Source of the DNA: a plasmid
Sequence record: NZ_CP024444.1
Direction: 5' to 3' (one strand)
DNA length: 64,000 bases
Shown here: piece by piece, positions 20,030-44,359 of the stretch
How positions within the stretch are numbered: position 1 is the first letter of the stretch
How the letters are laid out: every line of letters starts with the position of its first letter
Notes under the pieces: generated by a model
What the model was told of the DNA's origin: nothing
Databases searched by the model: none
What the model saw: only the letters and a program-made list of their open reading frames with translations
Made by a program: the position numbers and the translations under genes

Positions 20030-20915
20030 GACTAGGTTCTGTTGAACATTCAAAGCTTCAGCCAATGATAAGCAAAGGCTAGAGCGACCAAATTCTCATA
20101 ATTACGTTTAAGCTTCTCATACCTTGTCGCAATACCCCGATAATGCTTAATACGACAGAAAGTATTTTCAACTAAATGACGAGACTTGTATAAATGCCAA
20201 TCCATATGTTCATTTGATAGTTTAGTGTTACGCCTTCTTGGAATATTAGCTATGGTTTGACTCTCTTCAACTTTCTCACGAAAGCACTGAGAGTCATAGC
20301 ATTTATCAGCACCAAGTACCACAACATCACTTAAATCTAACGTATCAATCAAGTCAGGTGCTGCTTTAACATCGTGGGTTACGCCATCGGTAATGATGAA
20401 ACGAATGGGATTGCCATGTGCATCAACTGCTAAATGAATCTTACTGCTGTTGCCTGCGACACTTTTATCAATGCCTTGCTCTTTCATGTCACCACTACTA
20501 CTGTGCTGATGAGCTTTAATATAAGTTGCATCGATAAACAGCCACTCCATGTCTGGAAAGTTAATCATCTTTTCAAACAATTTGATGAGCTTATTACTTT
20601 GTGACCATCGGTTAAAGGCTTTAAATATTGTGTTGGTCTTTCCAAAATATCTGGGTAAGTCCCGCCACGGTATGCCTGTTCGCATTTTATATAAGATCCC
20701 TTCTACGGTCTTTCTTAAATTAGCATAGTCATAGATGCCAATTTCTTGTAGAATGGGTTTTAGCTTCTTCCAATGTTGATTATTTAGCATAAGACGAGGC
20801 ATAGCGAACAGTCTTCTTTTTGGGTCAGAGCTTAAAGTTTACTGCTTCGCTATTTTTTTATCAAAATTTCCTCATTATGTTCTTTTGTATATTAAATGTT
20901 CAACACAACCTAGTC
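20030..20915. mobile_element. IS5-family insertion sequence
   Basis: 21-bp terminal IRs GACTAGGTTCTGTTGAACATT (20030-20050) and its complement with one mismatch (20895-20915); single transposase ORF. Confidence 0.75.
20050..20802 (-). CDS. IS5-family DDE transposase
   Basis: 250 aa; ..MRTGIPWRDLP.. N-region and a DDE_Tnp_1-like C-terminus. Confidence 0.8.
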   Translation of the reverse strand: MPRLMLNNQHWKKLKPILQEIGIYDYANLRKTVEGILYKMRTGIPWRDLPRYFGKTNTIFKAFNRWSQSNKLIKLFEKMINFPDMEWLFIDATYIKAHQHSSSGDMKEQGIDKSVAGNSSKIHLAVDAHGNPIRFIITDGVTHDVKAAPDLIDTLDLSDVVVLGADKCYDSQCFREKVEESQTIANIPRRRNTKLSNEHMDWHLYKSRHLVENTFCRIKHYRGIATRYEKLKRNYENLVALAFAYHWLKL

Positions 20916-24792: not shown

Positions 24793-25353
24793 ATGTTAGT
24801 AAATGATTACACGGCGTTTGTGAAAAGGTTTCTGCAGCAATGCCTCATTGATGTAACTTGCCAATTACCAAATGACGATACCTATAAGGTTCGTGATATC
24901 CAGCCACGCATCAAGCTGCATTTTCAGGACAAAACATTTCGTTTCCTGCCTGAATTATTGGTAATTAATAATACCTTAGCTTTGGATTTTCAAAGAAATG
25001 ACACTGATTTGAATACAGTGGCATTAAAACTGCACAATCTAAGACTTAAAGAGCAAGATGCTAACAATACTAACAGTCAGCCACTCACGCCAACTCAAAG
25101 TGAAGTTGAGTATGACCTGTTATATATGGCGTTGGTCAAGCAACTGGTTTTAATGACTCATAAACCATTATTAAATCAATTCTATGAGCAAAATTTGTTT
25201 GATGCTAATAATCTTTCTGATACTTTGGTGAAATTAGATCAAGATGCCATTGACCGCATCAAAGCGTTATCAAGTAATCAACAAATACCAATCACTGAAG
25301 CTAAAAAGTCATACCGTCTATACCGTCTAGGTTTGGATGGGCAGCCATTTTAA
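24793..25353 (+). CDS. hypothetical protein
   Basis: 186-aa ORF with strong coding periodicity and no recognisable domain. Confidence 0.4.
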   Translation: MLVNDYTAFVKRFLQQCLIDVTCQLPNDDTYKVRDIQPRIKLHFQDKTFRFLPELLVINNTLALDFQRNDTDLNTVALKLHNLRLKEQDANNTNSQPLTPTQSEVEYDLLYMALVKQLVLMTHKPLLNQFYEQNLFDANNLSDTLVKLDQDAIDRIKALSSNQQIPITEAKKSYRLYRLGLDGQPF

Positions 25354-25367
25354 TTGGATAAATTGCC

Positions 25368-25724
25368 ATGCTAGTTATTGTGATTGCAATGCTTAGTGCG
25401 TATATAGTCAATCTTATCTTATCGTTTTGCAATAAAAGAAAAATTGATAAACGCATCACATATTCAATAGTAGCTGGCATGCTGATTATCAGTTTTTCTG
25501 CTGTCATCTACAATGTTTATTACCTTGACCCCTACATGAAAAAACAATTTGATGCCTATCAAAATCATGTAATACAACAAAATAAACAGCGTGTTGAAAT
25601 GCAGCGTATGCAGGCATTTATTAGATATGCCAATGCGTCAGACAGCCCAGCTGCCAAAGCCCAAGCTGAAGAACTGCAGCGTAAGCTTGATGCCATGCAA
25701 AAAAATCAAAGCAATACTCAATAA
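25368..25724 (+). CDS. small membrane protein with C-terminal coiled coil
   Basis: 118 aa; two N-terminal TM helices then a Q/K-rich helix. Confidence 0.4.
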   Translation: MLVIVIAMLSAYIVNLILSFCNKRKIDKRITYSIVAGMLIISFSAVIYNVYYLDPYMKKQFDAYQNHVIQQNKQRVEMQRMQAFIRYANASDSPAAKAQAEELQRKLDAMQKNQSNTQ

Positions 25725-25936
25725 GAAATATAACTTTTATAAAGTATTGACAACATCCCTAATCACTTTTAATATTCATAAACAAAATTACCGAAATAAA
25801 TGTTGATTGCAGCTATATGTGGCATCAAAATTTGATTTTTATCGAGTAGTTTGTATTATAATGTTCACACAACAGTTTTAATATGTGTTTACATCATATT
25901 ATTATTTAAGCAACAATTAATTTTATTGTTGTGATA

Positions 25937-25948
25937 ATTATTAGCGAA
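25937..25948 (+). promoter_or_regulatory. island motif copy (ATTATTAGCGAA)
   Basis: 6 nt upstream of ATG 25955. Confidence 0.5.
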
Positions 25949-25954
25949 TCAGAT

Positions 25955-26284
25955 ATGTTTAAAAAGAAAACGCCCGATTACCGGGGTAAAGCAATCATGC
26001 TTTATGAACCCGAAGACTTGTCTAATATTGAAGACAGATTTAGCCTTTGGCGAAAATCAGAATCTTTATATCACACCGATAAAACCACTCTCTTTAAATA
26101 CAACGAGCTTTTAAAGCGTCTTATTAACTACACAAATACCCTGTCAGCTTTGTTAGCAACCGCACTACTACTGGGCGTGTTGTATCTTGTGCTGTTTGGC
26201 AACTTTGAGAAAACAGTCCTTATAGATGGTACTTATTTGAGTTGTGTCGTTCAACCTGACGGCACGATTGGCGTTGATTTTTAA
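25955..26284 (+). CDS. small single-TM protein, candidate DotJ/IcmM-like
   Basis: Start moved to ATG 25955 (MFKKKTPDYRGK..); one TM helix (..ALLATALLLGVLYLVLFG..); lies immediately upstream of the DotI-like gene, as icmM does in Legionella. The motif ATTATTAGCGAA lies just upstream. Confidence 0.35.
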   Translation: MFKKKTPDYRGKAIMLYEPEDLSNIEDRFSLWRKSESLYHTDKTTLFKYNELLKRLINYTNTLSALLATALLLGVLYLVLFGNFEKTVLIDGTYLSCVVQPDGTIGVDF

Positions 26285-26302
26285 ATATACGGTAAAGACA
26301 AC

Positions 26303-27391
26303 ATGAATGACAACTATGACGATCAGACGAACCAGCGAGTAAGTCAACCCAATAACGGCATAACGAATGATGAATTTGACACCGCCAGTGTCCCCTTAAC
26401 CACTGACGCAAATGTTCGCCATGTTGATGATATTGAGTCACAGCCATTGCCTTATGGTGGTCTTGTCAATCAAGATGACACCGTTGAACTTCAAAATACC
26501 CTAGAGGAAATCGAAAAAGACCACGGTACTACCGAAGTTTATAAGATTGAAGAACAAGAGCTTAGTCAAAAACAATACCTCGACTTGCCTGTCCCTGGTA
26601 TTGATAACGATTACTACGAGCAGTCAGCGGTGGATGATGACAATCTAAAGCATGTTGAGCAGTATGACACCCAAGCTGGCGCATTCATGACACCTGAACA
26701 AATGACCAATTTGTCACCTGAAGATAAGGAGGCTTTATTAGCATCGGGGCAGATCGGCATCGGTACGATTATTCGTGAAAATGCTCATTTAGTGCAAGAT
26801 GCAATCAATAACCGCAAAACCCTATCTAAAGCAATCTTTGTAAGCCTAGCATTACTGGTCGCCTGTGTTGGTTTATTAATCGCCTTTTTGTCATATCCAA
26901 AAGTGCGTTACATCCCAACTAAAGATAACACTTCGATTTGTGAAGTAACTGCTGAAAACAATCCAAACCTTACCGACCCAATGATTTCTAACTTTGCCAA
27001 AGATGCCGTTGTTAATCTATACACGATGGACTATATCAATTGGAAATCCCAAAGTAACGCCTCTCTTGAGCGTTGGTTCACCAATCAAGGTCGAGTGGAC
27101 ACTATCAAAGCTATTCAAACCGCTGGTATTACCGATTACCTAGAAAAAAATGCATTGACCATGCGAGCTACCAACACAGGTGCACCACAAATTGAACAAA
27201 CAGGTAATTTAAGTGATGGTACCAAGTTTTGGCTAGTGCGTTTCCCCATGATTATTGATGTTTTTTCAGGCAAACCCACGCCTGAAGACACCCAACGATA
27301 CATTGTATCTGTACGTGTAATTGCTGATACCGCCAGTGCTCAAAATCCAGCTGGATTGGGCGTTAACTCTGTAACATTGAAACCAAATTGA
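26303..27391 (+). CDS. dotI/icmL: DotI/IcmL (TraM-like) type IVB secretion inner-membrane protein, with a 170-aa acidic N-terminal extension
   Basis: Single TM (..IFVSLALLVACVGLLIAFL..) followed by a periplasmic IcmL-like domain (..DPMISNFAKDAVVNLYTMDYINWKSQ....FWLVRFPMIIDVFSG..). Confidence 0.6.
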   Translation: MNDNYDDQTNQRVSQPNNGITNDEFDTASVPLTTDANVRHVDDIESQPLPYGGLVNQDDTVELQNTLEEIEKDHGTTEVYKIEEQELSQKQYLDLPVPGIDNDYYEQSAVDDDNLKHVEQYDTQAGAFMTPEQMTNLSPEDKEALLASGQIGIGTIIRENAHLVQDAINNRKTLSKAIFVSLALLVACVGLLIAFLSYPKVRYIPTKDNTSICEVTAENNPNLTDPMISNFAKDAVVNLYTMDYINWKSQSNASLERWFTNQGRVDTIKAIQTAGITDYLEKNALTMRATNTGAPQIEQTGNLSDGTKFWLVRFPMIIDVFSGKPTPEDTQRYIVSVRVIADTASAQNPAGLGVNSVTLKPN

Positions 27392-27407
27392 TAGCAAGGA
27401 TATAGCA

Positions 27408-28472
27408 ATGACATTTCCATCTTTGAAACCTATTATTCTTGGCCTTGTTGTCGCCACAGTATCGTTAATCACCCCAGCTGAAGCGCGTACCTCAAAACTG
27501 CCACCTAATACCATAGATATTAATGGTGGTGGGCGTTCCCCCGTGATTGCATTGGCACCAGCGGATATTCAACCACAAATTGTGCCATCACCGCGCACCA
27601 TGATATCTAGTCAAGTGGCAGAATTCCAACAAATGCAGCTAACGCCTGAAGAGGCGGACACCATCAAGCGCATTCGTTTGGATCGCCAGCGTATTGAAGC
27701 CACACCTTATGTCACAACGCCTGAACCTATTGTACGTTCATTAGGTGTTGAACTTGAGCCCGGCAAAACGCCACCCTTGATACGCGTATCAAAAAATATG
27801 CTGACAAGCATTGTCTTTACCGACGTAGATGGCAATCCATGGTACATCGAAAAGGTTGCTCTAAACCGTAACCAATTTTCTGACGCGGTATCTGCCGACA
27901 CGATTGCAGCCGACCAAAACGGGCAGCCATCAAGCAATCCAAATCAACCACAGCAAGCCCCAAAACCAGCATTAACCAATATCTTAACTATTGAGCCAAA
28001 TGATGCGATTGCTTACGGCAACGTATCGGTTACCCTAAAAGGCAAGGCATTACCCGTTATCTTCTTGTTAGCCGCTGGTCAAAACCAAGTGGATGTGCGA
28101 GTCGATGCGCGTGTTCCTGGTACAAACCCTGACGCTAAACCAACGTATATACCAAGCCCAATTGAAACCATGACAGGCATCGATGATGCAGCATTAAGTT
28201 TTCTTGATGGCGTGATACCGCAAGACGCTCAACCAATGGTTTCATCTGACCCAGCTGCCCAAGCATGGCGATTTAATGATTATCTGTATGTAAAAACCCG
28301 TTTTGACGTGCTCTATCCTGCTTATACCTCTCGTGCATCTACCCAAAATAGCGTCAATATCTATCGCTTTAGCGCAACGCTACCTAACAATAGCATTACG
28401 TTGACCCAGCGTGGTGGCCAACCATTCACAGTGTCGTTTGAAGAGGCACCGTATAGCGAATATCAACGATAA
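27408..28472 (+). CDS. dotH/icmK: DotH/IcmK (TraN-like) outer-membrane core-complex protein
   Basis: 354 aa with a signal peptide; size and position between the IcmL and IcmE homologues match DotH. The sequence similarity is recalled, not computed. Confidence 0.5.
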   Translation: MTFPSLKPIILGLVVATVSLITPAEARTSKLPPNTIDINGGGRSPVIALAPADIQPQIVPSPRTMISSQVAEFQQMQLTPEEADTIKRIRLDRQRIEATPYVTTPEPIVRSLGVELEPGKTPPLIRVSKNMLTSIVFTDVDGNPWYIEKVALNRNQFSDAVSADTIAADQNGQPSSNPNQPQQAPKPALTNILTIEPNDAIAYGNVSVTLKGKALPVIFLLAAGQNQVDVRVDARVPGTNPDAKPTYIPSPIETMTGIDDAALSFLDGVIPQDAQPMVSSDPAAQAWRFNDYLYVKTRFDVLYPAYTSRASTQNSVNIYRFSATLPNNSITLTQRGGQPFTVSFEEAPYSEYQR

Positions 28473-28495
28473 ACGACAATAATAGGGGAAACAAA

Positions 28496-30721
28496 ATGAC
28501 TACATTGGTATATGACAACAACAGTTTTTTTAACTTTAACAGTTCTTTTAACTCACTACTGGACGGTATTATGGAAAAAGTTCCTGGTATGCTCGGTCCT
28601 GATAGTCCACCTATGGCATCAAATGCTGTGACAGAGAATGTGGTTGTAACTGAAACAATCCAACAAACCACTGTTGCGCCATCTGACGTGATTTTGGATG
28701 ACCCAGGATTGACTACAGAACCAACGTTCCAAACTAGACCAAAGCCACTTAATCATAATCTACGTCGATTTATGAAAGAGTCATGGTTTAGACCTGTGGC
28801 GTTGGCATCTGCTGCCATTCTTGCAATTGGTGTCACCTTTGCAATCGGCTCTTTATCACAAAAAGACACCCCATTGGATAAAAAATCTCAAATGGATGTC
28901 GTGGATATCAACCAATCAAAAACAGGTGAGGAAAGCCTAAGTCCTCAACAAGCCGAGTTTTTACGTCAAAAACAAGCTGCACTTGCAGAACAAAATGAAC
29001 AAGCAGGGGTTACCAACGCGCCAGCGGTTATTATCCCGACAGCGACTACAGCTGATACGACAGCGACGTCTATGCCTATCGATACCAATCAGTCAGACGC
29101 ATCGGGTTTTAAAAAGAAAGACGCTTTGGTAAACCCTAACGGTGCGCCAGCTAATCAAGCAAATGCTTTACCACCTGATATCAACGATCCAAATAAATAC
29201 CAAAAGGTTGGTAGTGGCAGCGATACTTACTATATCGAAAAAAGCACACAGCGTCTTATTGTGCCACCAAACCAAGCCTTTACTGAAACCAAACCAGCAC
29301 CGATTGTTCAGCCTGGCAATGGCACGGCAACGGCAATGACTGCCAATACAGGCGGTACGGGTGGTGCAGGGGGCGCAGGCGGTACGGGTGGTGCAGGGGG
29401 CAATGGTAGTGGCGATCCAACTTATACCGTTGACCCTACTATTCAACGTTTGCGTGACGAAGTTAAAGCCAATTTTGACCAACAGCAACAAGCAGAAGAT
29501 GCTTATAATCAGCAACAGCAACAAGCGCAGCTGCAAGCACAGCAACAGCAAATGCAGCAACAGCAAGCGTTGATGCAACAACGTCAGCAAATGGCGGCTA
29601 ATGCGTTAAATAGCCAAGTGCAAACGTTAAGCAATAATGGGCAAGCAACGGGCGGTGGTTTCTCAACCAAAGCTTACCGCGTCAACCCATCAAATTACGC
29701 TATTAATGGCAACGTTAACATTGGTCAACCACAATACAATGACTACACGCGTCGCAACAATGGCGAGAATGTGCAATTTAATAATTCTATGAGTGTATCG
29801 GGGGCTGGTACTTCCAATACAAATTTTAATTCTGCAAATACTGGTGTTGCCAACAACACTTCAAGTCAGTATTTGCCGAGTAACGTCATTCGTGCTGGCA
29901 CAAGCTGGCCTGTGGTTATCACTAAAGAAGTGAATACCGATGAAGGTTTGCAAGTTATTGGACGTATTATGTCGGGTAAATTTGCAAATTCAACGGTATA
30001 TGGCATGGTGCAACCAACTGGGCGCAATATTGGGGTGGTTTTTGACCGGATTGCCCCAACAAACCCACGAAAACCTATTATTCCTGTCAATGCGATCGCA
30101 ACAACCATCGGCACTCAAAAACAAGCAGTAGCAACTAAGGTTAGCAAGCATTATCTACAAAATTATTCAGTTATTGCCGCAGAATCGATATTTGAAGGTT
30201 ATCAAGGTGCTTATGCAGGCGATGTCGGCGGTACAACGGTAACTGCTGGTGATGGCACTACTATCACTACAAAGCCAAAACCGAACTCTGAAATTATTCG
30301 CGGTAAAGTAATTGGTTCATTAAGTGGCAAATTAAACAATGATGTTGCCGCATTGGGTAACCGTGCCCCAACCTTTGAAATTGGTGTGGGTACCGTGCTT
30401 AATATGATGCTAATGAACGATTTTGATGTAACGCAAACAGTCAGTGATTTAGGGGGCGGTAGCAATACCCAAGGTGGTTCGGGTGGTATGGGTGGTGGTA
30501 ATTATTTTTTACCAAACGGTGGTCGCACTAACACGTCATACTACCAACCTAACGGTGGCAACAACCAACAAGGTGTTCAGCAAAATACGGGTAATTACCC
30601 ACAGGGCTACCAAAACTCACCGTACTCTCAAAGCAATCAAGATATGGGTTATACGCAAAATCAAGCGAATGGCTATTATCAACAACAGGTACAACCAAAT
30701 TATAACTATCAGCAACAATAG
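28496..30721 (+). CDS. dotG/icmE: DotG/IcmE (TraO / VirB10-like) channel protein with Gln/Gly-rich low-complexity regions
   Basis: 741 aa. TM around residue 100, Gly-rich and poly-Gln middle, and a C-terminal TrbI/VirB10-like beta-barrel region (..AGTSWPVVITKEVNTDEGLQVIGRIMSG..VVFDRIAP..). Ends in a Q/N/G/Y-rich tail. Confidence 0.6.
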   Translation: MTTLVYDNNSFFNFNSSFNSLLDGIMEKVPGMLGPDSPPMASNAVTENVVVTETIQQTTVAPSDVILDDPGLTTEPTFQTRPKPLNHNLRRFMKESWFRPVALASAAILAIGVTFAIGSLSQKDTPLDKKSQMDVVDINQSKTGEESLSPQQAEFLRQKQAALAEQNEQAGVTNAPAVIIPTATTADTTATSMPIDTNQSDASGFKKKDALVNPNGAPANQANALPPDINDPNKYQKVGSGSDTYYIEKSTQRLIVPPNQAFTETKPAPIVQPGNGTATAMTANTGGTGGAGGAGGTGGAGGNGSGDPTYTVDPTIQRLRDEVKANFDQQQQAEDAYNQQQQQAQLQAQQQQMQQQQALMQQRQQMAANALNSQVQTLSNNGQATGGGFSTKAYRVNPSNYAINGNVNIGQPQYNDYTRRNNGENVQFNNSMSVSGAGTSNTNFNSANTGVANNTSSQYLPSNVIRAGTSWPVVITKEVNTDEGLQVIGRIMSGKFANSTVYGMVQPTGRNIGVVFDRIAPTNPRKPIIPVNAIATTIGTQKQAVATKVSKHYLQNYSVIAAESIFEGYQGAYAGDVGGTTVTAGDGTTITTKPKPNSEIIRGKVIGSLSGKLNNDVAALGNRAPTFEIGVGTVLNMMLMNDFDVTQTVSDLGGGSNTQGGSGGMGGGNYFLPNGGRTNTSYYQPNGGNNQQGVQQNTGNYPQGYQNSPYSQSNQDMGYTQNQANGYYQQQVQPNYNYQQQ
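29351..29401 (+). repeat. near-perfect tandem duplication (24-nt unit, 27-nt period) encoding GGTGGAGG(A)
   Basis: GGCGGTACGGGTGGTGCAGGGGGC occurs twice, separated by GCA, inside the dotG-like gene. Confidence 0.85.
29470..29600 (+). repeat. CAG/CAA codon-repeat (poly-Gln) tract
   Basis: Runs of CAACAGCAACAAGC.. encode QQQQAQLQAQQQQMQQQQALMQQRQQ. Confidence 0.8.
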
Positions 30722-30782
30722 ACGGCTAGTTACCAACCTTACCCGGTAAGGGTTTAACAGGTGGTGATCAACATTCATTAAG

Positions 30783-30792
30783 TTTTAGCGAA
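30783..30792 (+). promoter_or_regulatory. island motif copy (TTTTAGCGAA)
   Basis: 12 nt upstream of ATG 30805 (dotF-like). Confidence 0.5.
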
Positions 30793-30804
30793 AAGGGTTT
30801 TTTT

Positions 30805-31920
30805 ATGAAAAGTGTAACAAAAGCCACGTCGAAGGTGACTAGATTAACCGAAATGACATCAGCGACACCAGGCAAACCGGGTATTAAAACGGATCAAACG
30901 CAAAAGAAAAAATTAGACTTGCCCTTACCATTACCAGCCTTAATCGCCTTAGGTGTTTTGGTTGCAGGCGTCATGATTTTTGCAATTGTTCACCAAATGA
31001 ACCGCAAACCAACCGTGGTTCAGACAAAAATAGTTACCCCAATTGCCTCTACCACGGCAACGACTGAACTTACCACAGTCGGCACCCAACCGACTACTGT
31101 TGTGAGTGTTATCAATCCAAGTCCTGATTATTTCATGAATAAGCCTGACCCAATTGGGGCGTTAGCTGAACAAAGTACCGACCAAGCGATTAAAGGTAGT
31201 CCTACCTATCAACCCAATGTTGGTTTAAGAACCCCAAACGGTACCATCATTGCTGAAGCATCACCGGAAATGAATACCATCCGTCAAGCCGTTCAATCGG
31301 GGGTAGTGCAAACACTTAATGGCGCAATTACGTCGCAAAGTAATGGTCAAGGCGGACAGACGCTAACTTATATATCGCCAACAGGTCAAAGCATGCCATT
31401 GGCAACAGAACCAGCGCAATCTCAAGTGCAACAGTTGGCATTTGCTACTGCAAGAGATCAGTTGCAAAGCCAATTGCTCATTGCATCGACAGCTCAACAA
31501 GCTGGTACCCCTGTGCCTGTTCAACCAGTACAGCCAGTACAAGCCCAAGCTGCACCATCGCTTAACAACGAAGAAAAACAAGCATTGATGGACATCATTG
31601 CTATGCAAAAGCAACAAAACTTGCAATTGCGTATGCAAAACCGTGAAATCAAAGACAAGATGGCGACTCAAGACCGTCAAGTCACTCAAGTATTCCAACG
31701 TCTTGAAGACTCACCGAATGCAAGCCAAAAACTACGTGCAACGATGCTGCCTAAATCTGCTGGCTATAAATACATTGCTTCAATGAATGGTCGTTATTGG
31801 GTTCAAGACAAGACAGGTCATATTACTACCTTAACTTCAGGCGAGATTTTACCTGGCACTGACTTGCGCATTGTCGATGCACAGGCTGATACAGGTATTA
31901 TTTTGGTTACTAGAAAATAA
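30805..31920 (+). CDS. dotF/icmG: DotF/IcmG-like (TraP-like) bitopic inner-membrane protein
   Basis: 371 aa; N-terminal TM (..ALIALGVLVAGVMIFAIV..), Q-rich coiled coil and a C-terminal periplasmic domain; positioned after the dotG-like gene. The motif TTTTAGCGAA is upstream. Confidence 0.45.
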   Translation: MKSVTKATSKVTRLTEMTSATPGKPGIKTDQTQKKKLDLPLPLPALIALGVLVAGVMIFAIVHQMNRKPTVVQTKIVTPIASTTATTELTTVGTQPTTVVSVINPSPDYFMNKPDPIGALAEQSTDQAIKGSPTYQPNVGLRTPNGTIIAEASPEMNTIRQAVQSGVVQTLNGAITSQSNGQGGQTLTYISPTGQSMPLATEPAQSQVQQLAFATARDQLQSQLLIASTAQQAGTPVPVQPVQPVQAQAAPSLNNEEKQALMDIIAMQKQQNLQLRMQNREIKDKMATQDRQVTQVFQRLEDSPNASQKLRATMLPKSAGYKYIASMNGRYWVQDKTGHITTLTSGEILPGTDLRIVDAQADTGIILVTRK

Positions 31921-31935
31921 AAAAGAGCTGTCATC

Positions 31936-32544
31936 ATGCTGTTATTGACCGTCAATAAACCCGATATCATTGTCATGCTGTCCAATATGGCATTGGCATT
32001 TGATTATCTATTGAAGTTTTTGCGCTATGCATTAGTGTTTTTATCATTGGTGTGGGTTTTTTATGCCTTGTTAAATTTGTATGCATTAGCTTCAGCAAGT
32101 AGCGGTGTACCAAACAAATTTTTCCCAACTCAAGCGCAGCCAACGACGGCTGGTGCTTTTGCCCAATTATTTGTCGCAGGTTTATTATTTACATTTGCTT
32201 GGAATTTGCTACCGATGGCAATCATGAGTTCATCGGTAATGGATAGTATTGCAGGGGTTAAGGTTTACTCATTAGGTAGTTATGATACAACCAATCCAAA
32301 TTCTGACGTGGTTCGTAAGTTGTCCTATGATTTACTTATCAAGGTTATGCAATTTATTGGATTTATGGGGATGTTTAAAGGCATACGCCTGTGGTACCAA
32401 GTATCGCAAGGCACCAATAATGAGCCAAGCTGGAAAATTATGGGCTATTTATTTTGGGGAATGGTGGCATTTAATTTTGAATGGTTCTACTCATTGTTAA
32501 CCAGCATTATGGGCTTTGACTTCTTAGGCTTGTTTATGCACTAG
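31936..32544 (+). CDS. dotE/icmC: DotE/IcmC-like polytopic membrane protein
   Basis: 202 aa, about 4 TM; assigned by position in the icmG-icmC-icmD-icmJ order. Confidence 0.4.
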   Translation: MLLLTVNKPDIIVMLSNMALAFDYLLKFLRYALVFLSLVWVFYALLNLYALASASSGVPNKFFPTQAQPTTAGAFAQLFVAGLLFTFAWNLLPMAIMSSSVMDSIAGVKVYSLGSYDTTNPNSDVVRKLSYDLLIKVMQFIGFMGMFKGIRLWYQVSQGTNNEPSWKIMGYLFWGMVAFNFEWFYSLLTSIMGFDFLGLFMH

Positions 32545-32792
32545 CAATAAAATAAATATTTGTAACTGTAATGTGCTCGATAATATCAAATTTTGTCGAG
32601 CATTAAATCAATGATGATAGACCCTAGATGCGCAGTAACAAATGGGCTTAGAGCTAAAAAAAGTTCAAAAAAAAGCCATTAAATTTGTGTTTAAATTGTT
32701 TTTAATTAAATTTTAATGTGGTATTATCTTACCAAACGGTAACTTTGAGTACCAACCCAACCACCAGTCACTACTTCACAGGTGGTGAATAA

Positions 32793-32803
32793 TTTTTAGC
32801 GAA
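32793..32803 (+). promoter_or_regulatory. island motif copy (TTTTTAGCGAA)
   Basis: Followed by TAAGAGG SD and ATG 32816 (icmD-like copy 1). Confidence 0.55.
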
Positions 32804-32815
32804 TAAGAGGCTTGT

Positions 32816-33223
32816 ATGAAAATTACAGACATTAAGCAGTCTATTAACGACAAAGTTTTAGCAGCATTCGTTCTACTCCCAGCAATTATTGCCACCATGC
32901 CAGCCGAGGCTAGTACCTCGCTATCAGATGCCTACAGCGCAGACAAATCTAAAGCAGGCTCATTAACATCGTCAAACGGCGGTAATGCTGACGCAGGCTT
33001 AGGTATCGTCTATAAATTACTATCAGGTGTTTTCATCCTAGTGGGCTTATGGTTCATTGGTACTGGTTTCATGAAAGTTCGTAAAGCATCAAACAGTGAA
33101 GGTCGTGAAAGCCCTACAGGTGGTTGGGTTGCCGTTGTCATTGGCGGTGCCCTAGCGACATCATCTTACATTCTTTGGACCATGTCTAAAACAGTTGAAA
33201 ACGTTACTGGTGCTAGTTCATAA
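32816..33223 (+). CDS. dotP/icmD: DotP/IcmD-like small membrane protein (copy 1)
   Basis: 135 aa; signal/TM plus two TM helices; C-terminus ..LWTMSKTVENVTGASS is paralogous to the next gene. The motif lies 12 nt upstream of the ATG. Confidence 0.4.
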   Translation: MKITDIKQSINDKVLAAFVLLPAIIATMPAEASTSLSDAYSADKSKAGSLTSSNGGNADAGLGIVYKLLSGVFILVGLWFIGTGFMKVRKASNSEGRESPTGGWVAVVIGGALATSSYILWTMSKTVENVTGASS

Positions 33224-33253
33224 GAGTAAACGGTTAACACCTTGTCAACTCAA

Positions 33254-33290
33254 AAGCATCTATTCATTAAACTGGGTAGGTGCTTTTTTT
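33254..33290 (+). terminator. putative rho-independent terminator
   Basis: AAGCATCTA..TAGGTGCTT imperfect stem followed by T7, between the two icmD-like paralogues. Confidence 0.45.
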
Positions 33291-33322
33291 AATTACAACA
33301 TAGAAATCTAATACAACCTACA

Positions 33323-33712
33323 ATGGGTGTTGAAATGTCTAATCTACAACAGCTAAAAAAACTGCCTGCCACATTAATTTCATTGCTGATCCTTTTTTAT
33401 GTATCACCAACCTTTGCCGCCCTTGATGCCCTACCTGATTCGCCACACCAAGATGCAACCATTCCCAAAGTAGCAGGACATTTTGATGAAACATTGGGTA
33501 TTGCTTATAAAACCTTTACGGGTTTTGCTGTGGTGGTAGGCTTAATCTTTATTTACGTTGGACTAAGCCGACTTAAAAAAATCAATAACGATGAAATCAG
33601 TGGTAGCGTGGCATCCTGTTTTTGGATATTGGGTATCGGTGGTGCGATGGCATCCTTGGGCGTCGTTTTATTTTCTATGTCTAAAACCGTTGAGTCGGGT
33701 ACGACAGGTTAA
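33323..33712 (+). CDS. DotP/IcmD-like small membrane protein (copy 2)
   Basis: 129 aa; same architecture; C-terminus ..LFSMSKTVESGTTG. A putative terminator (33254-33290) separates it from copy 1. Confidence 0.4.
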   Translation: MGVEMSNLQQLKKLPATLISLLILFYVSPTFAALDALPDSPHQDATIPKVAGHFDETLGIAYKTFTGFAVVVGLIFIYVGLSRLKKINNDEISGSVASCFWILGIGGAMASLGVVLFSMSKTVESGTTG

Positions 33713-33738
33713 CACTGCCTCGCAAGGAAAATCATATT

Positions 33739-34716
33739 ATGAGTTACCTACCACATGGATTTGGCCGCCTACAGTTAAATGTTCACCGCCCTAACTGGCG
33801 CAATGAAATCAACCTCCATCGCACGCCAAAATATCTAAGTATTCTACATTCAGCTCGCCGAAATACCGCGCAAGCCGCCTGCCACTTTTGCGGTTACCCT
33901 GACGGTGAGTTTTTAGAAATTCACCATGTCAATGGCGATCATGATGATTATTCAGACGGCAATATCAAGTATGCCTGTTCATTGTGTCATCGATTACATC
34001 ATCTAGGGTGGGCTGGTATTAAGTCAAACGGCAAGCTCATTCATTTACCATCATGGCAAACCATAGGCCAACAGGGAAAAGCGCAGCATGAAGTCCATAG
34101 CCTTGAAGTGTTTAATATCATGCAACGCTTTGTCATTATGTCTAAGTTTTTAAGTCAAGACGAGCAAGAGCGTTTTCAGGCATCCGCGCTTATGGAAAGT
34201 ATTTCATCGTTGCTTGCCTGCTTTAAGCATGTTGACTTGCAAAGTGCCTATATCGCCAATAAATATCGCATTGCAAAAATCTTGCAAAATCAGCGCGAGA
34301 TTGAAACTAAAACGCCTGAAGAAAAGGCAGCGGCACTAAAAAAACAAAAAGAAGAGCGTTTAGCTGAACAGCTGCAAGATGATAGCGATGTATTTAATAC
34401 AGAAAAGCTCAACATCATTGATTTGGTCGACGCCTTATGTCAGGTGCATCAGCATCATTTACTAACGAGCCATGACCCAAAACAACCGTCGCCAACCGAC
34501 ACCTTTTTTGCCCAACAAACCACGGGTGAGTTTGGTCGTTTAACCCTATTCTATAATGAGTCAATCTTCGAGCCATTTGAGCCAAACCCTGCTTATTCTC
34601 TCGAAGAGCGTCTGCAAAGCTATCGTGATAGCAATATGTTTACCAAAGATGGGTTAACCAAAATATTGCATGTATCAAGACAAGGTCGGCAGGCAAGTCA
34701 TCAAGCAATCAGTTAG
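33739..34716 (+). CDS. dotN/icmJ: DotN/IcmJ-like Cys/His-rich zinc-binding protein with C-terminal extension
   Basis: The motif string C-x-FCGY..(8)..H-VNGDHDDYSDGN..YACSLCHRLHH..LIHLPS matches the pattern I recall for Legionella IcmJ (CQFCGF..NLDGDYTNN..ACCFCAQCFF..IYLPE). The protein is 325 aa against about 208 aa for IcmJ. Confidence 0.55.
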   Translation: MSYLPHGFGRLQLNVHRPNWRNEINLHRTPKYLSILHSARRNTAQAACHFCGYPDGEFLEIHHVNGDHDDYSDGNIKYACSLCHRLHHLGWAGIKSNGKLIHLPSWQTIGQQGKAQHEVHSLEVFNIMQRFVIMSKFLSQDEQERFQASALMESISSLLACFKHVDLQSAYIANKYRIAKILQNQREIETKTPEEKAAALKKQKEERLAEQLQDDSDVFNTEKLNIIDLVDALCQVHQHHLLTSHDPKQPSPTDTFFAQQTTGEFGRLTLFYNESIFEPFEPNPAYSLEERLQSYRDSNMFTKDGLTKILHVSRQGRQASHQAIS

Positions 34717-36155: not shown

Positions 36156-36215
36156 CCAGCTCACGTCTTTATCCCTTTGATGCATTTTGCAAAAACGAAA
36201 CAGGATTTTCATACC

Positions 36216-37592
36216 ATGCCAAACCACCCACTGACAGTTAAACCCTTAGCCTTAGCAACCCTTTTCTTAGCAAGCTTACCTATCTCTGCTTTTGCTTGCG
36301 GTGTAACTGATAAGCCACCCGTCAAAAAAATTCCCTCAAACTATATTGCCGCCAGCAATAATCAATGCTTAATTTATAAATTTCTTCAAGATGATGCTGT
36401 TAAAAGCGTTACATGGACAGGTGAGTGTAAAGACGGCTATGCATCCGGTCATGGTATCGCTACTTGGTTCGATGGTGAAAACAAACCAATACTTCGTGTC
36501 GATACAGAACTCGACCACGGTGATATGAATAAGAAAGCGATAATGGATTGGGAACAAGAAAACGGCTGTGAATATAAACACATGGAAACCGATATGCGTG
36601 ATAACAAACAACGGGGGCATGCGGTTATTGAGTTTACCGATGGTAATAAGTATGTTGGTGAATCAAATGACCCTAATGTACCCAATAAAGGTGTTTTTAC
36701 TTGGGGGAAAGGTAGCCAATGGTCGGGTGATCGATATGAAGGGCAGTTTTTGAATGGTATACGGGATGGGTATGGTGTATATACGTCAGGCATCTATACC
36801 GATTGGGTTAACCAAGGCATTGACTTTAAAACCGCAAAATTTAACAACCCAACTGATTTTGATGATTACGAAGGGTTTCGCTATGAAGGTCAATGGAAAG
36901 CCGGTAACAAAGACGGTAAAGGTAAATTTTATAGTAAAGATTTTAATTATGAAGGCGATTGGGTGGATGACCAAAAAAATGGCAACGGTGTGGGCTACTG
37001 GCCTGGAAAAAAGGCAACTTATGAAGGGCAATGGAAAAATGACCAGCCTAATGGAAAAGGCAAGCTGACCACTGAAGAATTACGCTATGAGGGTGATTTT
37101 ATAGATGGCAACCGACATGGCCATGGCGTTTATTACTTGTACAAAGAGAATTCAAAATATGAAGGGGAATGGAAAGACGATCAAACCAATGGGAAAGGTA
37201 TGCTTACCCGTAATGATGACAAATGGTACCAATGGTACCAAGGGGACTTTCAGCATAGTAAAATTTCAGGGAAGGGTGAGCTGCATCTTGCAAGTGGTAC
37301 CGTAGCCGTAGGTAGTTTTATTGGTGGTTATGTGTGGGGCTTTAACACCGTCACTGTCCCAAAACCTGCCTATGATAACCCTAAAGCAAAACGTACTCCA
37401 AGTCTTGGTAAGTGGGTAGACCCAAACACCTATGTTGAACAAGGTTGGTTTTTTAATGATAAATTAGTCTTTAACTGTAAAAGCGAGCAAGATTGCTATA
37501 AGATTGCCAAAACCGATCCTGTTAAAAACAAATTCATTAAAGACACCGAGAAAAAAAGAGAATACTTTGAATTAAATTCAACGCTCGATTAA
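36216..37592 (+). CDS. MORN-repeat lipoprotein
   Basis: Signal peptide with lipobox (..LPISAFACG). At least 8 MORN-type repeats (YEGQWKAGNKDGKGKFY / YEGDWVDDQKNGNGVGY / YEGQWKNDQPNGKGKLT / YEGDFIDGNRHGHGVYY / YEGEWKDDQTNGKGMLT). Confidence 0.6.
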   Translation: MPNHPLTVKPLALATLFLASLPISAFACGVTDKPPVKKIPSNYIAASNNQCLIYKFLQDDAVKSVTWTGECKDGYASGHGIATWFDGENKPILRVDTELDHGDMNKKAIMDWEQENGCEYKHMETDMRDNKQRGHAVIEFTDGNKYVGESNDPNVPNKGVFTWGKGSQWSGDRYEGQFLNGIRDGYGVYTSGIYTDWVNQGIDFKTAKFNNPTDFDDYEGFRYEGQWKAGNKDGKGKFYSKDFNYEGDWVDDQKNGNGVGYWPGKKATYEGQWKNDQPNGKGKLTTEELRYEGDFIDGNRHGHGVYYLYKENSKYEGEWKDDQTNGKGMLTRNDDKWYQWYQGDFQHSKISGKGELHLASGTVAVGSFIGGYVWGFNTVTVPKPAYDNPKAKRTPSLGKWVDPNTYVEQGWFFNDKLVFNCKSEQDCYKIAKTDPVKNKFIKDTEKKREYFELNSTLD

Positions 37593-39349: not shown

Positions 39350-39757
39350 TTACAATTGGCTTATTGTCCTGGCATTCAACATTTCGCATGGATTTTTTAG
39401 GCAAGTGGGGTCGACACTATAGGCAGCATAGCTTGCTGACCAAAACACCCCTTCATCCACAGATAGCATGCCACTCGCCTCGCGTTTTAATGCCTTTGTC
39501 GATGCACTTTTGAAGCGATTGACCAGTGATGAAACACTGATAGTCGCAGGATAACGCACAATAAAATTAATGCAATGTGGCTCATACTCAAATATTATGA
39601 GCTGACCGCCGTTTAAATCGCATACCCTAAATATAGCCTCTTTGATGATAGCTTGTGTTGTATCATCAAGTTTATGGGCATCATTTAAAATATAGAACAC
39701 TAAATATGTATAAAGGTATGAAACCACGAAGCGACGGTCTTTAAATCCCCTTGACAT
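39350..39757 (-). CDS. IS200/RAYT-like (Y1 HUH superfamily) protein with degenerate HuH motif
   Basis: 135 aa. ..IIFEYEPHCINFIV.. aligns with the RAYT HuH region ..VVLPEHMHCIW.. but lacks the second His. C-terminal ..YAAYSVDPTCLKNP.. resembles the RAYT catalytic-Tyr region ..YIYINPVKHG... Confidence 0.4.
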   Translation of the reverse strand: MSRGFKDRRFVVSYLYTYLVFYILNDAHKLDDTTQAIIKEAIFRVCDLNGGQLIIFEYEPHCINFIVRYPATISVSSLVNRFKSASTKALKREASGMLSVDEGVFWSASYAAYSVDPTCLKNPCEMLNARTISQL

Positions 39758-41149: not shown

Positions 41150-44100
41150 ATGAGCATTGTTAACAATGTACAAAATATTGTATTAAGCATCCTGCATGCG
41201 CTAAAAGCCAATGTGGAAGACTATTGCGACCTTGAAACCACCGATGGTCCTACTGAATTAGTATTTAAAAATGGCGGCATGATGACCCTTGTTCGGTACG
41301 ACGGGTTGTTATCCATGATTACCCGTGACATCTTTGATGGTATGAATGACCGTCTTACTGAAGAAATGGCACCGTTTTTAAACAAGTCAGGTCATAAAGT
41401 CTGTATGATGTTTCGACGTGACTTAGATGCCAACTCGTCGCTTCAAACCATTAATCAGCTGCAAAAGCAAACCTGTGAACGCTTGAACTTAGACTTGGGT
41501 TATCTGATTGATGAAAATACCGAAATTTACGAAAAATATATCTATGACGAAGAGTGCTACATTGCCTTAATCACCTTGCCATCCGTTTTAGATAAGGTTG
41601 AGCGTGAAAATCACGAAGAGTATTTAAAGTCGTTCATCGCGCCAGCCATGAAGGATGCGCAAAATCTATCTGCCCCCATTCCCACCTTACGTGCTCGCCA
41701 CTCTTCATTTGTTGAAAAATTCATAACCACCATCAACAACAAAGATTTCTATGTTAAAGCGGTTAAGGTCAACATCCTTGATGCCCTAGCGGTCGTGCGT
41801 CACCAAGTAGCACCAAATACCTCCGACCGTCGCTGGCGTCCGGCAGTTGCCTTAGGTGCTGCCAATGCGCGTGAATTAGGTATTAAGTATCGTACACCGC
41901 TACGTTGGCCAACCACCAGCAACTCACATGATTTTTCACACATGTTGCCGCCATCATTGCCTGAACAAATCATGTTTAATAACATTAATATTTTAGGTCC
42001 CAAAGAGGGCTTGCCACCCAATACCATTGCTACCGATGGTCGTTTGTATGCCACCACCATGATGAATATTCCGCCAACCCAACCAGCGGTATTTGAAGCC
42101 TTATTCAATAGCTTTAATGAGTCATCGTCAAAGGATAGTATGGGGCGCATTCGCTCGATGCCATACTCAATTTGTTTTATGTTGACGGGTGACGGCTACG
42201 CAGGGCATGCGGTGAAAAAAGCCTTTATGCAGTTTTTAAGCAAAGTGCCACCAAGCACCAATGAAAATTTAAAAGCAGCAACCAGTCAGCTGTTAGAATA
42301 TAAACGTGCCGATGTACCCTTGGTTGCGTTTCAGATATCAGCCATGACGTGGTGTGATGATGATGCGTTTGGACGTGAGGAAATCCGTAAACGTCGTACT
42401 CGCTTAATTCATACCTTATCTACTTGGGGTGGCATGAGCTGTGTTGAACGTGCTGGTGACCCTGTATCGATGTTTACCAGTAATATTATTGGTTTATCAG
42501 ACACTTCAATTGCACCAAAGGGTGTTGCGCCTCTACCACGCGCATTTGAAATGATGCCGTTCACCCGTCCTGCATCGCCTTTTTATAAAGGCACGGTACT
42601 GCGTCGCACCCAAGATGGTAAAGCGATGATTTTGGAACGTTTCTCGTCTGAATTAAGCACATGGATTTCGCTATATTCAGGTCGACCGGGTTCGGGCAAA
42701 TCGGTATCGCTTAACAACGACTTAACTGAAACTTGCTTTATGCCGGGTATTGAGCGACTGCCGTATATTACCGTGATTGACGTGGGTATTAGCTCGACAG
42801 GTTTTATTAATCAGCTGCGCAATGGGCTACCTAAGCACCAACGCTATCTTGCTGTCACCAAGCAATTAAGAAAGTCGCGAGAGTATGCGATCAATCCATT
42901 TGATATCAAAGTGGGCTTAACCCGTCCGCTTGAAACCGAAAAAAACCAAATGGCCAGTTTCTTAACCTCGCTATTAACCCCTAAAGAAAAACGTGAACCT
43001 TATAACGGCACTTATAACTTCGTCCTGTACCTTATCACTGAAGTATTTGAGTCAGTAAATGAAGGGGAAGAGAAGGGGTCATCGAAAATCTATCGATACG
43101 GTTATGCCCCTGAATTGGATGATTACTTAATCAATAACAACATCATTCGCTTTGGTACTAAACAAGTGGCTGACGGGTTTGGTGGTCTTAAAAAAATTAT
43201 TGACGGCGATGACATTGAATCGGTCAGTTATTATGAATTAACCCGACGCTTACATGTGATTGGTACTAAATTTGGTGGTGATGAACGCGCATTGGCTTGG
43301 CGTGCTCGTGACTTGGCGCATCGAAACGCAATGCCAACCCTAGATGACATTGTTAAGGTGTTAAATAAACCTGAAACCACCAAACGCTATAAAAACAAAA
43401 TCGAAACTGAAGAAACCATTGTTGAATACGCCTCGCGTGTTATCAATGAGGTAATTAATAACTACCCATGTTTTGCCAATACGACACGTTTTGATGTCGA
43501 CACAGCTCGCGTGGTCGCGCTTGACTTAAACGATGTGGTGGACGTAAATAACCCACAGCAAACCTCGTTGTTTTATCAAATCGCCCGTATGGTGGGGGTA
43601 AAAAAAATCTCACTAACCGAGCAGGATATTGAGTCTGAAGCCATCCCTGACTTGTTTAAACCGTATTACCGTGACCTGTTCCGTGAAATCTCACAGGACC
43701 GCAAAATCCTTGCTATGGATGAAATGCATAACTTGCAGGGTGAGCCTGTCCTCATGGCGCAGCTTGAGAAAGACTGCCGTGAGGGTCGTAAATGGGGACT
43801 TGAAGTTATTTTGGCGTCCCAACGTTTAATCGACTTTAAACGCATTGTCGGCTACGCAACCACGTTAAACATCTGTAGTGAGCCAGCTGGTGAGGACTTA
43901 GCATTACTGCGTGAAAACTTCCGTATCAACGACACCATGGTAGACCAACTGTCACGCATTTCATTGGGTCGTGAAGGCTTAAGTTATTTCTCTTACATCG
44001 TCGGTAAAACCGATATTTATTGTTCAATGCTTACCATGACGGTAGGTCCAAAACGCTTATGGTCGCTGACCACCGATGCTGATGACCGTATTTTACGTCA

Positions 44101-44359
44101 GTATATGTTTGATATCGCTGGCGACAGAAAAACCGCGATCAATGCACTGGCGTTTCGGTTCCCGGGTGGTGCTCGTAACGCCATTAGTGACCTACGTGAG
44201 CAAGTTAAGCTTAAAAGCTCTGACCTATCTGAAGTTGAAATGGAAAAAGAGGCTGGCAACTTGATTGAGAACTTGGCTCGCGAAACGTTGTCGATGTGGG
44301 ACCAATTCCAATTAAATATACAAGCCGACGAACAAAGCGGCTTGTTAGCGTTCGCATAA
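41150..44359 (+). CDS. dotO/icmB: DotO/IcmB (TraU-like) VirB4-class T4SS ATPase
   Basis: 1069 aa; Walker A ..YSGRPGSGKSVSL.. and Walker B ..ILAMDEMHNL..; follows the dotN-like gene as in Legionella. The motif TTAGCGAATAAGAGG lies upstream. Confidence 0.7.
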   Translation: MSIVNNVQNIVLSILHALKANVEDYCDLETTDGPTELVFKNGGMMTLVRYDGLLSMITRDIFDGMNDRLTEEMAPFLNKSGHKVCMMFRRDLDANSSLQTINQLQKQTCERLNLDLGYLIDENTEIYEKYIYDEECYIALITLPSVLDKVERENHEEYLKSFIAPAMKDAQNLSAPIPTLRARHSSFVEKFITTINNKDFYVKAVKVNILDALAVVRHQVAPNTSDRRWRPAVALGAANARELGIKYRTPLRWPTTSNSHDFSHMLPPSLPEQIMFNNINILGPKEGLPPNTIATDGRLYATTMMNIPPTQPAVFEALFNSFNESSSKDSMGRIRSMPYSICFMLTGDGYAGHAVKKAFMQFLSKVPPSTNENLKAATSQLLEYKRADVPLVAFQISAMTWCDDDAFGREEIRKRRTRLIHTLSTWGGMSCVERAGDPVSMFTSNIIGLSDTSIAPKGVAPLPRAFEMMPFTRPASPFYKGTVLRRTQDGKAMILERFSSELSTWISLYSGRPGSGKSVSLNNDLTETCFMPGIERLPYITVIDVGISSTGFINQLRNGLPKHQRYLAVTKQLRKSREYAINPFDIKVGLTRPLETEKNQMASFLTSLLTPKEKREPYNGTYNFVLYLITEVFESVNEGEEKGSSKIYRYGYAPELDDYLINNNIIRFGTKQVADGFGGLKKIIDGDDIESVSYYELTRRLHVIGTKFGGDERALAWRARDLAHRNAMPTLDDIVKVLNKPETTKRYKNKIETEETIVEYASRVINEVINNYPCFANTTRFDVDTARVVALDLNDVVDVNNPQQTSLFYQIARMVGVKKISLTEQDIESEAIPDLFKPYYRDLFREISQDRKILAMDEMHNLQGEPVLMAQLEKDCREGRKWGLEVILASQRLIDFKRIVGYATTLNICSEPAGEDLALLRENFRINDTMVDQLSRISLGREGLSYFSYIVGKTDIYCSMLTMTVGPKRLWSLTTDADDRILRQYMFDIAGDRKTAINALAFRFPGGARNAISDLREQVKLKSSDLSEVEMEKEAGNLIENLARETLSMWDQFQLNIQADEQSGLLAFA

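Follow-up and report, generated by a model that had tools for sequence, protein, structure and literature searches.

A DotG/TraO-type VirB10 homolog from a Moraxella osloensis plasmid with low-complexity modules in a putative spacer and a long, probably disordered C-terminal tail

VirB10/DotG proteins bridge the two membranes crossed by a type IV secretion machine, and present structures show little of their middle regions. We analyzed a 64,000-nucleotide stretch of plasmid DNA (sequence record NZ_CP024444.1; "the window" hereafter) that encodes a protein of this kind, a 741-residue homolog of DotG and TraO ending in a Q/N/G/Y-rich tail. On balance, we favor the view that it is an envelope-spanning core subunit of a conjugation machine, in which internal low-complexity modules would serve as a flexible periplasmic spacer and the tail would be a tolerated or accessory disordered appendage in the periplasm. 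RefSeq already holds the protein, family assignment included; the tail amounts, for now, to a curiosity of an annotated protein rather than to a discovery. It is real and a little odd, but it is neither unique nor, among the variants listed, of differing length between strains.

The gene is longer than was assumed in an initial sequence-only reading of the window, which placed it at 29330-30721. The open reading frame (ORF) really spans 28496-30721; position 29330 is codon 279, and the shorter span covers only the last 60%. The upstream start was adopted because the closest orthologs also begin MTTLV... and share the transmembrane segment. An internal start near 29330 was ruled out by the conservation of the N-terminus and the transmembrane helix in orthologs. 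The product is 100% identical to RefSeq WP_145958806.1, "DotG/IcmE/VirB10 family protein [Moraxella osloensis]", which is on record from 10 contigs. Over the 19 kb surrounding the gene, the window and pMOXF1, a 248-kb M. osloensis plasmid, share 99.7% identity; the entire DotG-type gene differs from its counterpart there by 8 nt, and the proteins (QCR87070.1 in pMOXF1) are 99.3% identical. The strain carrying pMOXF1 has been described as a contaminant of a mycoplasma culture. In GenBank, the protein of the M. osloensis NP7 plasmid (ATW71432.1; P0165; window 29450-30721) is called with 423 aa, starting at codon 319. This short call lacks the transmembrane anchor and is probably a mis-called start; RefSeq has the protein at full length.

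To what family does the protein belong? By its predicted fold, it is a member of the VirB10/TrbI superfamily, with a barrel and a helix-loop-helix antenna. An AlphaFold (AF2) model of residues 441-741 was built with 90 homologs, and all 25 Foldseek matches at E ≤ 1e-3 were VirB10-family chains. The best of these was the dome of Legionella DotG (9NGW; E 4e-13, TM-score 0.75); further matches were CagY, Xanthomonas VirB10, TrwE, TraF, F-type TraB, and ComB10. In solved homologs, the VirB10 barrel makes the outer-membrane dome or pore. When a profile of the protein and seven orthologs was compared with the PDB, it matched Legionella DotG (7muc, 9ngw) at E 6e-14, in an alignment that takes in DotG residues 768-1044 and, weakly, the N-terminal membrane segment. 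The NCBIfam model of DotG/IcmE (NF033900) was matched at E 8e-13, with 47.4 bits vs. an equivalog cutoff of 750 bits and only over aa 324-644 (model positions 728-1007). Pfam PF03743 (TrbI) gave no match at E ≤ 0.1 to the full protein or to the barrel alone; relatives score 28-34 bits against it, and its gathering cutoff is 35. No pentapeptide family was among the protein's Pfam matches at E ≤ 0.1. The VirB10/DotG homology put forward in the sequence-only reading is backed by Foldseek, by the family profile vs. DotG, and by the DotI and DotH genes upstream.

Homologs were surveyed with a barrel-only HMMER scan of 1.84 billion cluster representatives, which was used in place of a barrel-only word-index search that had returned 2 matches. 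Contigs of species-representative genomes were also scanned with the family alignment; this gave 87 pattern matches, none of which was confirmed by tblastn.

The full-length model comports with a bitopic topology, i.e., a cytoplasmic N-terminus, one transmembrane helix, and a periplasmic remainder. W97 and R99, at the predicted helix, are invariant in the family alignment. The cytoplasmic N-terminus contains a small repeat of its own: an 18-nt, near-perfect tandem duplication (28520-28553, plus strand; 15 of 16 nt) that codes for NSFFNF/NSSFNS.

Low-complexity modules lie between the anchor and the barrel. The tandem duplication of a Gly-rich unit noticed in the sequence-only reading is present and perfect, with a unit of 27 nt; the 24 nt given there is 3 nt short. 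Tandem Repeats Finder reported a period of 27 nt, 2.0 copies, and a 100% match at 29349-29401 (score 106). The repeat codes for GGTGGAGGA followed by GGTGGAGGN (aa 286-303) and has a sub-period of 9 nt (GGX). The CAG/CAA stretch also exists, not as the homopolymer of about 30 Gln residues that had been described, but as an interrupted tract of 41 residues (aa 326-366, nt 29471-29593), 23 of which are Gln (56%), with a longest Gln run of 5. Its Gln codons are interleaved (14 CAA, 9 CAG), and the longest run of one codon anywhere in the gene is 3. In the structural model, the tract would form part of a single 69-residue helix of ~10 nm rather than a disordered homopolymer. This Q/A-rich helix is conserved among orthologs, and R363, Q365, and A367 are invariant in the family alignment.

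Close orthologs share a common plan. Their N-terminal halves consist of a cytoplasmic N-terminus, one transmembrane helix, a helix with a conserved QAEYL motif, and a Gly/Asn-rich segment (~residues 230-315); their C-terminal halves comprise a Gln/Ala-rich segment, a polar linker of variable length, and a barrel that opens with IIRAGTxWPVVITKxVNTDEGL. The Gly/Asn segment has the same position in all of them and differs in unit and length: the unit is GGTGGAGGA here, and NNGGNNGA, GGGYNGG, and others are found in relatives. In these alignments, the modules are features of the subfamily, conserved in position and drifting in sequence and length. In some relatives, the linker that precedes the barrel contains Q/G/Y-rich oligopeptide repeats: P0017 (aa 354-407, (QGYGQG)n), P0015 (aa 421-457), and P0020 (aa 429-454). 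The solved parts of Legionella DotG are its N-terminal transmembrane helices, short helices that line the periplasmic ring, and the dome; the pentapeptide-repeat region between them is flexible and unresolved (PMC12501162; PMC8486379). That the middle region of Legionella DotG carries pentapeptide repeats, as the sequence-only reading stated, is confirmed by the literature (PMC6761968, PMC12501162). By their position, the Moraxella modules would occupy the place of this spacer.

Beyond the barrel, the protein ends in the tail, which had been estimated at about 90 G/N/Q/Y-rich residues. It is 89 residues long, in frame, and predicted to be disordered; the AF2 models assign it no secondary structure (pLDDT 31-50). 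Gly and Gln account for 21% each, Asn for 17%, and Tyr for 12%, with Q+N amounting to 38%; two residues are charged and 12 are aromatic. Of the window's 58 ORFs with 120 aa or more, this one stands out most in composition, its tail reaching a Q+N+G+Y fraction of 0.77 per 60 aa (next, 0.45; median, 0.28). It shares the frame of the barrel as well as its GGT and CAA codon preferences, and no stop interrupts it. Internal repeats beyond composition were not detected in the tail: the score was 35 vs. a shuffle mean of 43.7, and 184 of 200 shuffles equaled or exceeded the observed value. A tblastn search of 72,556 plasmids found no homolog of the tail besides the pMOXF1 copy itself. A home-made, approximate PAPA-style average, not a score of the published program, came to 0.07-0.12 for the tail vs. 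the usual threshold of 0.05. "Prion-like composition" is a fair description of the tail, as a description only.

How common are such tails? The barrel end could be matched in ~155 representatives, and their median extension past the barrel is ~0. The extension reaches at least 30 residues in 12 and at least 60 in 5, two of which are the present protein; the 89-aa tail is the longest. Tails of 5-15 residues occur in the closest relatives by barrel identity (53-58%), and Legionella DotG ends 4 residues past the barrel in the profile alignment. Orthologs in identical synteny have tails of 12 (P0002), 23-27 (P0003-P0006), and 44 (P0009) residues, all of them Q/N/S/G-rich. On these comparisons, the 89-residue tail is the extreme of a continuum of tail lengths and specific to the M. 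osloensis plasmid lineage. In P0003-P0006 and P0009 (L003 6001-8079), the Q-rich tail of about 19-44 aa closes with a conserved R-[ST]-[ST]-L at the extreme C-terminus, a pattern suggestive of a spacer that leads to a fixed end motif. P/G/Q/Y-rich tails of 82-91 aa with a conserved DNRYRGPLN end occur in a separate TrbI clade (P0121, P0087, P0147); from the sequences, long low-complexity tails arose there independently within the superfamily. The tail was called unusual at the outset, and it is indeed rare; it is not unique, however, given the TrbI clade. Among related homologs, then, similar tails are short in orthologs, absent from most relatives, and long in one other clade. In our literature searches, neither low-complexity tails at the C-terminus of VirB10 proteins nor the modular build of this DotG subfamily turned up.

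Strain-level data were drawn from the 90%-identity cluster of the protein, which has 55 members; 40 of the 55 were read and 15 listed, and the variant counts given throughout are those among the members listed. They contain 11 distinct full-length variants, all exactly 741 aa long and without a single indel. The 17 variable positions are evenly spread, at 2-3% per region: the Gly repeat has none of them, the Q tract has one, and the tail, which is free of frameshifts and premature stops in all 11, has two. Module lengths do differ between distant orthologs; the modules therefore lengthen and shorten on a long time scale rather than from strain to strain. As far as these variants indicate, tail length is stable within the species, and the gene is not a contingency locus.

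The surroundings of the gene are those of a transfer cluster (Table 1). The DotI-DotH-DotG gene order is kept in four orthologous loci (L002-L005), and the gene order of the cluster is reproduced in the orthologous contigs L003-L005 and in a Moraxella bovis plasmid. At the position of the putative ATPase gene, orthologous loci have a gene of ~1070-1090 aa. The coupling protein reaches 299 bits with TrbC_conju, below the 800-bit cutoff. Genes for a DsbC-like protein, a staphylococcal-type nuclease, and an M23 peptidase protein also lie within the cluster. From these similarities, we take it for a conjugation system of IncI-like kind (MPF_I, type IVB) that has moved far from the enterobacterial models. 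For most components of the cluster (window 20000-47317), Pfam and NCBIfam gave no match; its divergence puts the system beyond the reach of standard typing. No account of the M. osloensis plasmid transfer system was found in literature searches.

The favored arrangement can be set out as follows. The protein would serve an IncI-like conjugation machine, encoded on an M. osloensis megaplasmid, as its core subunit of DotG/TraO type (VirB10 class). The modules between anchor and barrel would be this family's version of the periplasm-spanning spacer, made up of a (GGX)n hinge, the ~10-nm Gln/Ala-rich helix, and an N/S/T-rich flexible linker, and they would play the role of the proline-rich region of VirB10 and of the pentapeptide-repeat middle domain of Legionella DotG. 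The tail would be a lineage-specific, disordered enlargement of the short polar tail (12-44 aa) found in many relatives, attached at the last barrel strand and lying to the periplasmic side of the ring in the outer membrane. The antenna helices are the sole part of VirB10 proteins to span that membrane. Since the antenna (aa 553-621) lies upstream of the tail, which comes after the last barrel strand, the default location of the tail is the periplasmic face of the dome. Because orthologous machines exist without the 89-aa tail, it is most probably an appendage that is tolerated, or accessory at most, rather than a core element. The core complex of pKM101 assembles, and can be detected, when TraF/VirB10 carries a C-terminal Strep-tag (PMC3630358); a VirB10 C-terminus therefore tolerates at least a short tag.

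Several observations weigh against this arrangement or loosen it. The status of tolerated appendage derives from the absence of the tail in relatives. All tail carriers are at least 99% identical, so selection on the tail is not measurable, and the intactness of the tail in the 11 variants would also fit a function. The second VirB10 clade with similar tails, together with the ends conserved in two clades (R-[ST]-[ST]-L and DNRYRGPLN), hints that such tails can be functional. The periplasmic placement, although most likely, is a default expectation carried over from VirB10-family structures. As for the machine, Pfam TrbI is not reached, and family membership is carried by fold and profile evidence. 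No relaxase was recognized among those ORFs of the window that were scanned with Pfam and NCBIfam. MOB-suite types pMOXF1 as non-mobilizable, though a coupling protein and DotI/H/G-type genes are present. Transfer activity of the plasmid is thus something we infer from its genes.

If the tail does more than persist, it might act as a functional cohesive module. The 13-18 copies concentrated by the ring would self-associate or bind a partner (peptidoglycan, porins, or DotH/DotC-type subunits), and the effect might be to gate the chamber, to stabilize the outer-membrane complex, or to plug it until mating contact. We consider this possible, if distinctly less probable than a tolerated appendage. 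The composition resembles that of prion-like and phase-separating domains in its Q+N and Tyr contents, its two charged residues in 89, and its approximate PAPA-type score; G/Y/Q tails arose independently in another TrbI clade; end motifs are conserved past variable spacers in two clades; and the tail is intact in all 11 variants. "Outer membrane" is, moreover, an enriched category among bacterial prion-like predictions (PMC6400439), which we count on the same side. Against these points, orthologous systems of identical synteny work with tails of 12-44 aa or none, the tail has neither a conserved motif nor a homologue elsewhere in the 72,556 plasmids, and the PAPA-type score is a home-made approximation. 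A more specific version, which we think unlikely, would have the 13-18 tails of the ring cohere into a mesh, hydrogel-like or amyloid-prone, that lies within the conjugation pore or just below it. By analogy, not homology, to the low-complexity barriers of nucleoporins, such a mesh could be a gate or seal, or else a self-associating switch, and the other VirB10 clade would have converged on the same purpose; this, too, we hold to be unlikely.

The sequence-only reading had imagined the tail facing outward. On the cell surface, it might be a sticky, prion-like adhesin or aggregation factor that aids mating-pair formation. Stretched out, the 89 residues (~30 nm) could in principle pass through the central pore, surface exposure has been proposed for VirB10 homologs such as CagY (PMC6761968), and the composition of the tail is adhesive-like. 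The membrane-crossing element in solved VirB10-family structures is the antenna, however, which here lies upstream of the tail; the tail comes after the final barrel strand, 13-16 tails threaded through the pore would occlude the channel, and no relative suggests such an arrangement. Surface display is accordingly a reading to which we give little credence.

Still less credible is a contingency locus like that of CagY, in which slippage or recombination in the Gly repeat, the Q tract, or the tail would create length variants between strains. A perfect duplication of a 27-nt unit is present, modules differ in length and unit among distant orthologs, and the middle region of DotG and CagY do vary by recombination (PMC6761968). 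Yet the simple repeats, which had been flagged as potential slipped-strand hotspots, show no length variation across the 11 variants, and comparison of copy number between isolates revealed no change in the Gly repeat. The idea is largely refuted at the strain level. Replication slippage is also unlikely because the Gln codons are interleaved (identical runs of at most 3), the 27-nt unit has only 2 copies, and the tail is aperiodic.

Finally, an origin of the tail in a frameshift, a missed stop, or misassembly can be set aside with near certainty. It is true that short-read assemblers can stumble in the Q tract: P0172, a 449-aa metagenomic variant, comes from contigs no longer than 1.9 kb; its N-terminus, Q-rich and foreign, is joined at codon 349 (~29540), inside the tract, and the variant is probably a short-read assembly chimera across the CAA/CAG stretch. 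The 741-codon frame, however, is seen in the complete plasmid pMOXF1, in a contig of 271,709 bp, apparently the NP7 plasmid of M. osloensis, and in dozens of other, independent contigs, which refutes the suspicion that the repeats are assembly artifacts. A misplaced stop, or a tail out of frame, is contradicted by the frame and codon preferences shared with the barrel, and orthologs have shorter in-frame tails of similar composition.

Table 1. Positions of the DotG-type gene, its parts, and neighboring transfer genes in the window
Feature	Position	Strand	Evidence or remark
DotI/IcmL (TraM-type) homolog, two genes 5' of the DotG-type gene	26303-27391	+	PF11393 E 3.5e-23; NF038072 E 2.2e-21
DotH/IcmK (TraN-type, VirB9-like) homolog, directly upstream of the DotG-type gene	27408-28472	+	PF12293 E 1.5e-50
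DotG/TraO-type VirB10 homolog, complete gene	28496-30721	+	741 aa plus stop; ORF list; exact match to WP_145958806.1 (P0159)
Predicted single transmembrane helix (aa 98-118) over hydrophobic stretch PVALASAAILAIGVTFAIGSL	28787-28849	+	AF2 helix; ~97-aa cytoplasmic N-terminus before the helix
Gly-rich (GGX)n segment (aa 284-306)	29345-29413	+	Perfect 27-nt x2 duplication within, 29349-29401
Long predicted alpha-helix (aa 314-382)	29435-29641	+	AF2, pLDDT ~70-77 in low-confidence full-length model
N/S/T/G-rich linker from helix to barrel (aa 383-454)	29642-29857	+	pLDDT <50; length highly variable in alignment
VirB10-type beta-barrel (aa 455-652), predicted	29858-30451	+	AF2, 90 sequences, pLDDT 96-98; Foldseek; 743 homologs at E ≤ 1e-3
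Predicted antenna helices (aa 553-574 and 598-621), hairpin tip between	30152-30358	+	AF2 model
Q/N/G/Y-rich, aperiodic, nearly uncharged tail (aa 653-741, 89 aa)	30452-30718	+	Composition; pLDDT 31-50
IcmJ/DotN-like protein, weak match	33739-34716	+	NF038221 E 6.6e-6, below cutoff
Large putative VirB4/DotO-class ATPase (~1070 aa)	41150-44359	+	Weak AAA_22 and TraC-F-type matches
TrbC-like type IV coupling protein, inferred DotL-class	44372-47317	+	NF041447 TrbC_conju E 9.1e-89; TraG-D_C, TrwB_AAD_bind

Other observations concern the neighborhood and the records. In pMOXF1, the counterpart of the IcmJ/DotN-like gene bears the annotation HNH endonuclease. The transfer cluster also encodes a 471-aa protein (36177-37592, plus strand) in which five MORN repeats were recognized (E 9.9e-35), an unusual companion for a conjugation system. 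On the minus strand, genes for an IS200-type TnpA (Y1 transposase; 39350-39757) and a TnpB (OrfB_IS605/Cas12f-like; 47652-48758), 8 kb apart, flank the genes for the nuclease, the large ATPase, and the coupling protein. Positions 20034-20913 have no match in pMOXF1 and are 98.1% identical to an IS5-family transposase region of another Moraxella plasmid; the window plasmid therefore differs from pMOXF1 by at least one insertion or rearrangement. Within the DotG-type gene, a minus-strand ORF (29168-29590; 140 aa, Leu-rich) was rejected as a mechanical mirror image of the CAA/CAG tract, and two plus-strand ORFs (29361-29573 and 30474-30749) were rejected as off-frame readings of low-complexity DNA. 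Promoter and terminator scans gave counts no higher than expected from shuffles, and Rfam had no matches in 25000-34000. The 90% cluster also includes P0164 (MBX4420552.1), a 103-aa fragment from a 309-nt contig deposited as Mycobacterium tuberculosis that matches window 28568-28876 (aa 25-127); it is almost certainly a contaminant sequence within a tuberculosis assembly.

What do these features offer? The spacer of this subfamily would be built from Gly/Asn-rich and Gln-rich modules in place of proline-rich or pentapeptide-repeat sequence, and its variants are a natural comparison set for what a spacer needs to provide: a set length, flexibility, or a drive to oligomerize. Prion-like C-terminal tails appear to have arisen at least twice in the superfamily, and the tail is a cheap, testable handle. 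Should it prove functional, it would be an unusual case of a low-complexity domain working in the bacterial envelope.

The closest known counterpart is DotG/IcmE of Legionella pneumophila (7MUC, 9NGW), the best match in both sequence and fold. Both proteins have an N-terminal transmembrane anchor, a long periplasmic region, and a VirB10-type C-terminal barrel, which in DotG forms the outer-membrane dome, and both are encoded after dotI and dotH. DotG is longer (1048 vs. 741 aa), it carries pentapeptide repeats where the Moraxella protein has a Gly-rich hinge and a Gln-rich helix, and it has 4 residues past the aligned barrel vs. 89 here. Its system translocates effectors, whereas the present one looks conjugative. 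TraO of IncI and IncM plasmids (R64, pCTX-M3), the MPF_I homolog of VirB10, is likewise plasmid-borne and shares the order DotI(TraM)-DotH(TraN)-DotG(TraO). Further points of similarity on the Moraxella side are a DsbC-like protein, a nuclease, and a coupling protein that matches TrbC_conju below its cutoff and may be the equivalent of IncI/R64 TrbC. The present cluster differs in that most of its other components are too diverged for Pfam and NCBIfam and that no relaxase was recognized among its scanned ORFs. Many representatives of ~400-470 aa that match in the barrel alone end within a few residues of it.

The type IVA proteins VirB10 of Agrobacterium, TraF of pKM101, and TrwE of R388 share the bitopic inner-membrane anchor, the extended periplasmic spacer, and the barrel with its two-helix antenna, and the C-terminus of TraF tolerates an addition (Strep-tag; PMC3630358). 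Their spacer is proline-rich, in contrast with the Gly/Asn-rich and Gln-rich one here, sequence identity in the fold alignments is 15-16%, and Pfam TrbI is not reached by the Moraxella protein. CagY of Helicobacter pylori resembles it as a VirB10 homolog with large low-complexity or repeat regions beside the barrel (PMC6761968); here, by comparison, there are two 27-nt copies, aperiodic low complexity, and constant length across the variants. Lastly, the tail shares its Q/N/G/Y-rich, nearly uncharged, and predicted disordered character with prion-like domains such as the N domain of yeast Sup35 and the candidate in Clostridium botulinum Rho. Unlike those cytoplasmic domains, it would lie in the envelope and has no oligopeptide repeat, and the resemblance, known here from the amino acid sequence, is one of composition only.

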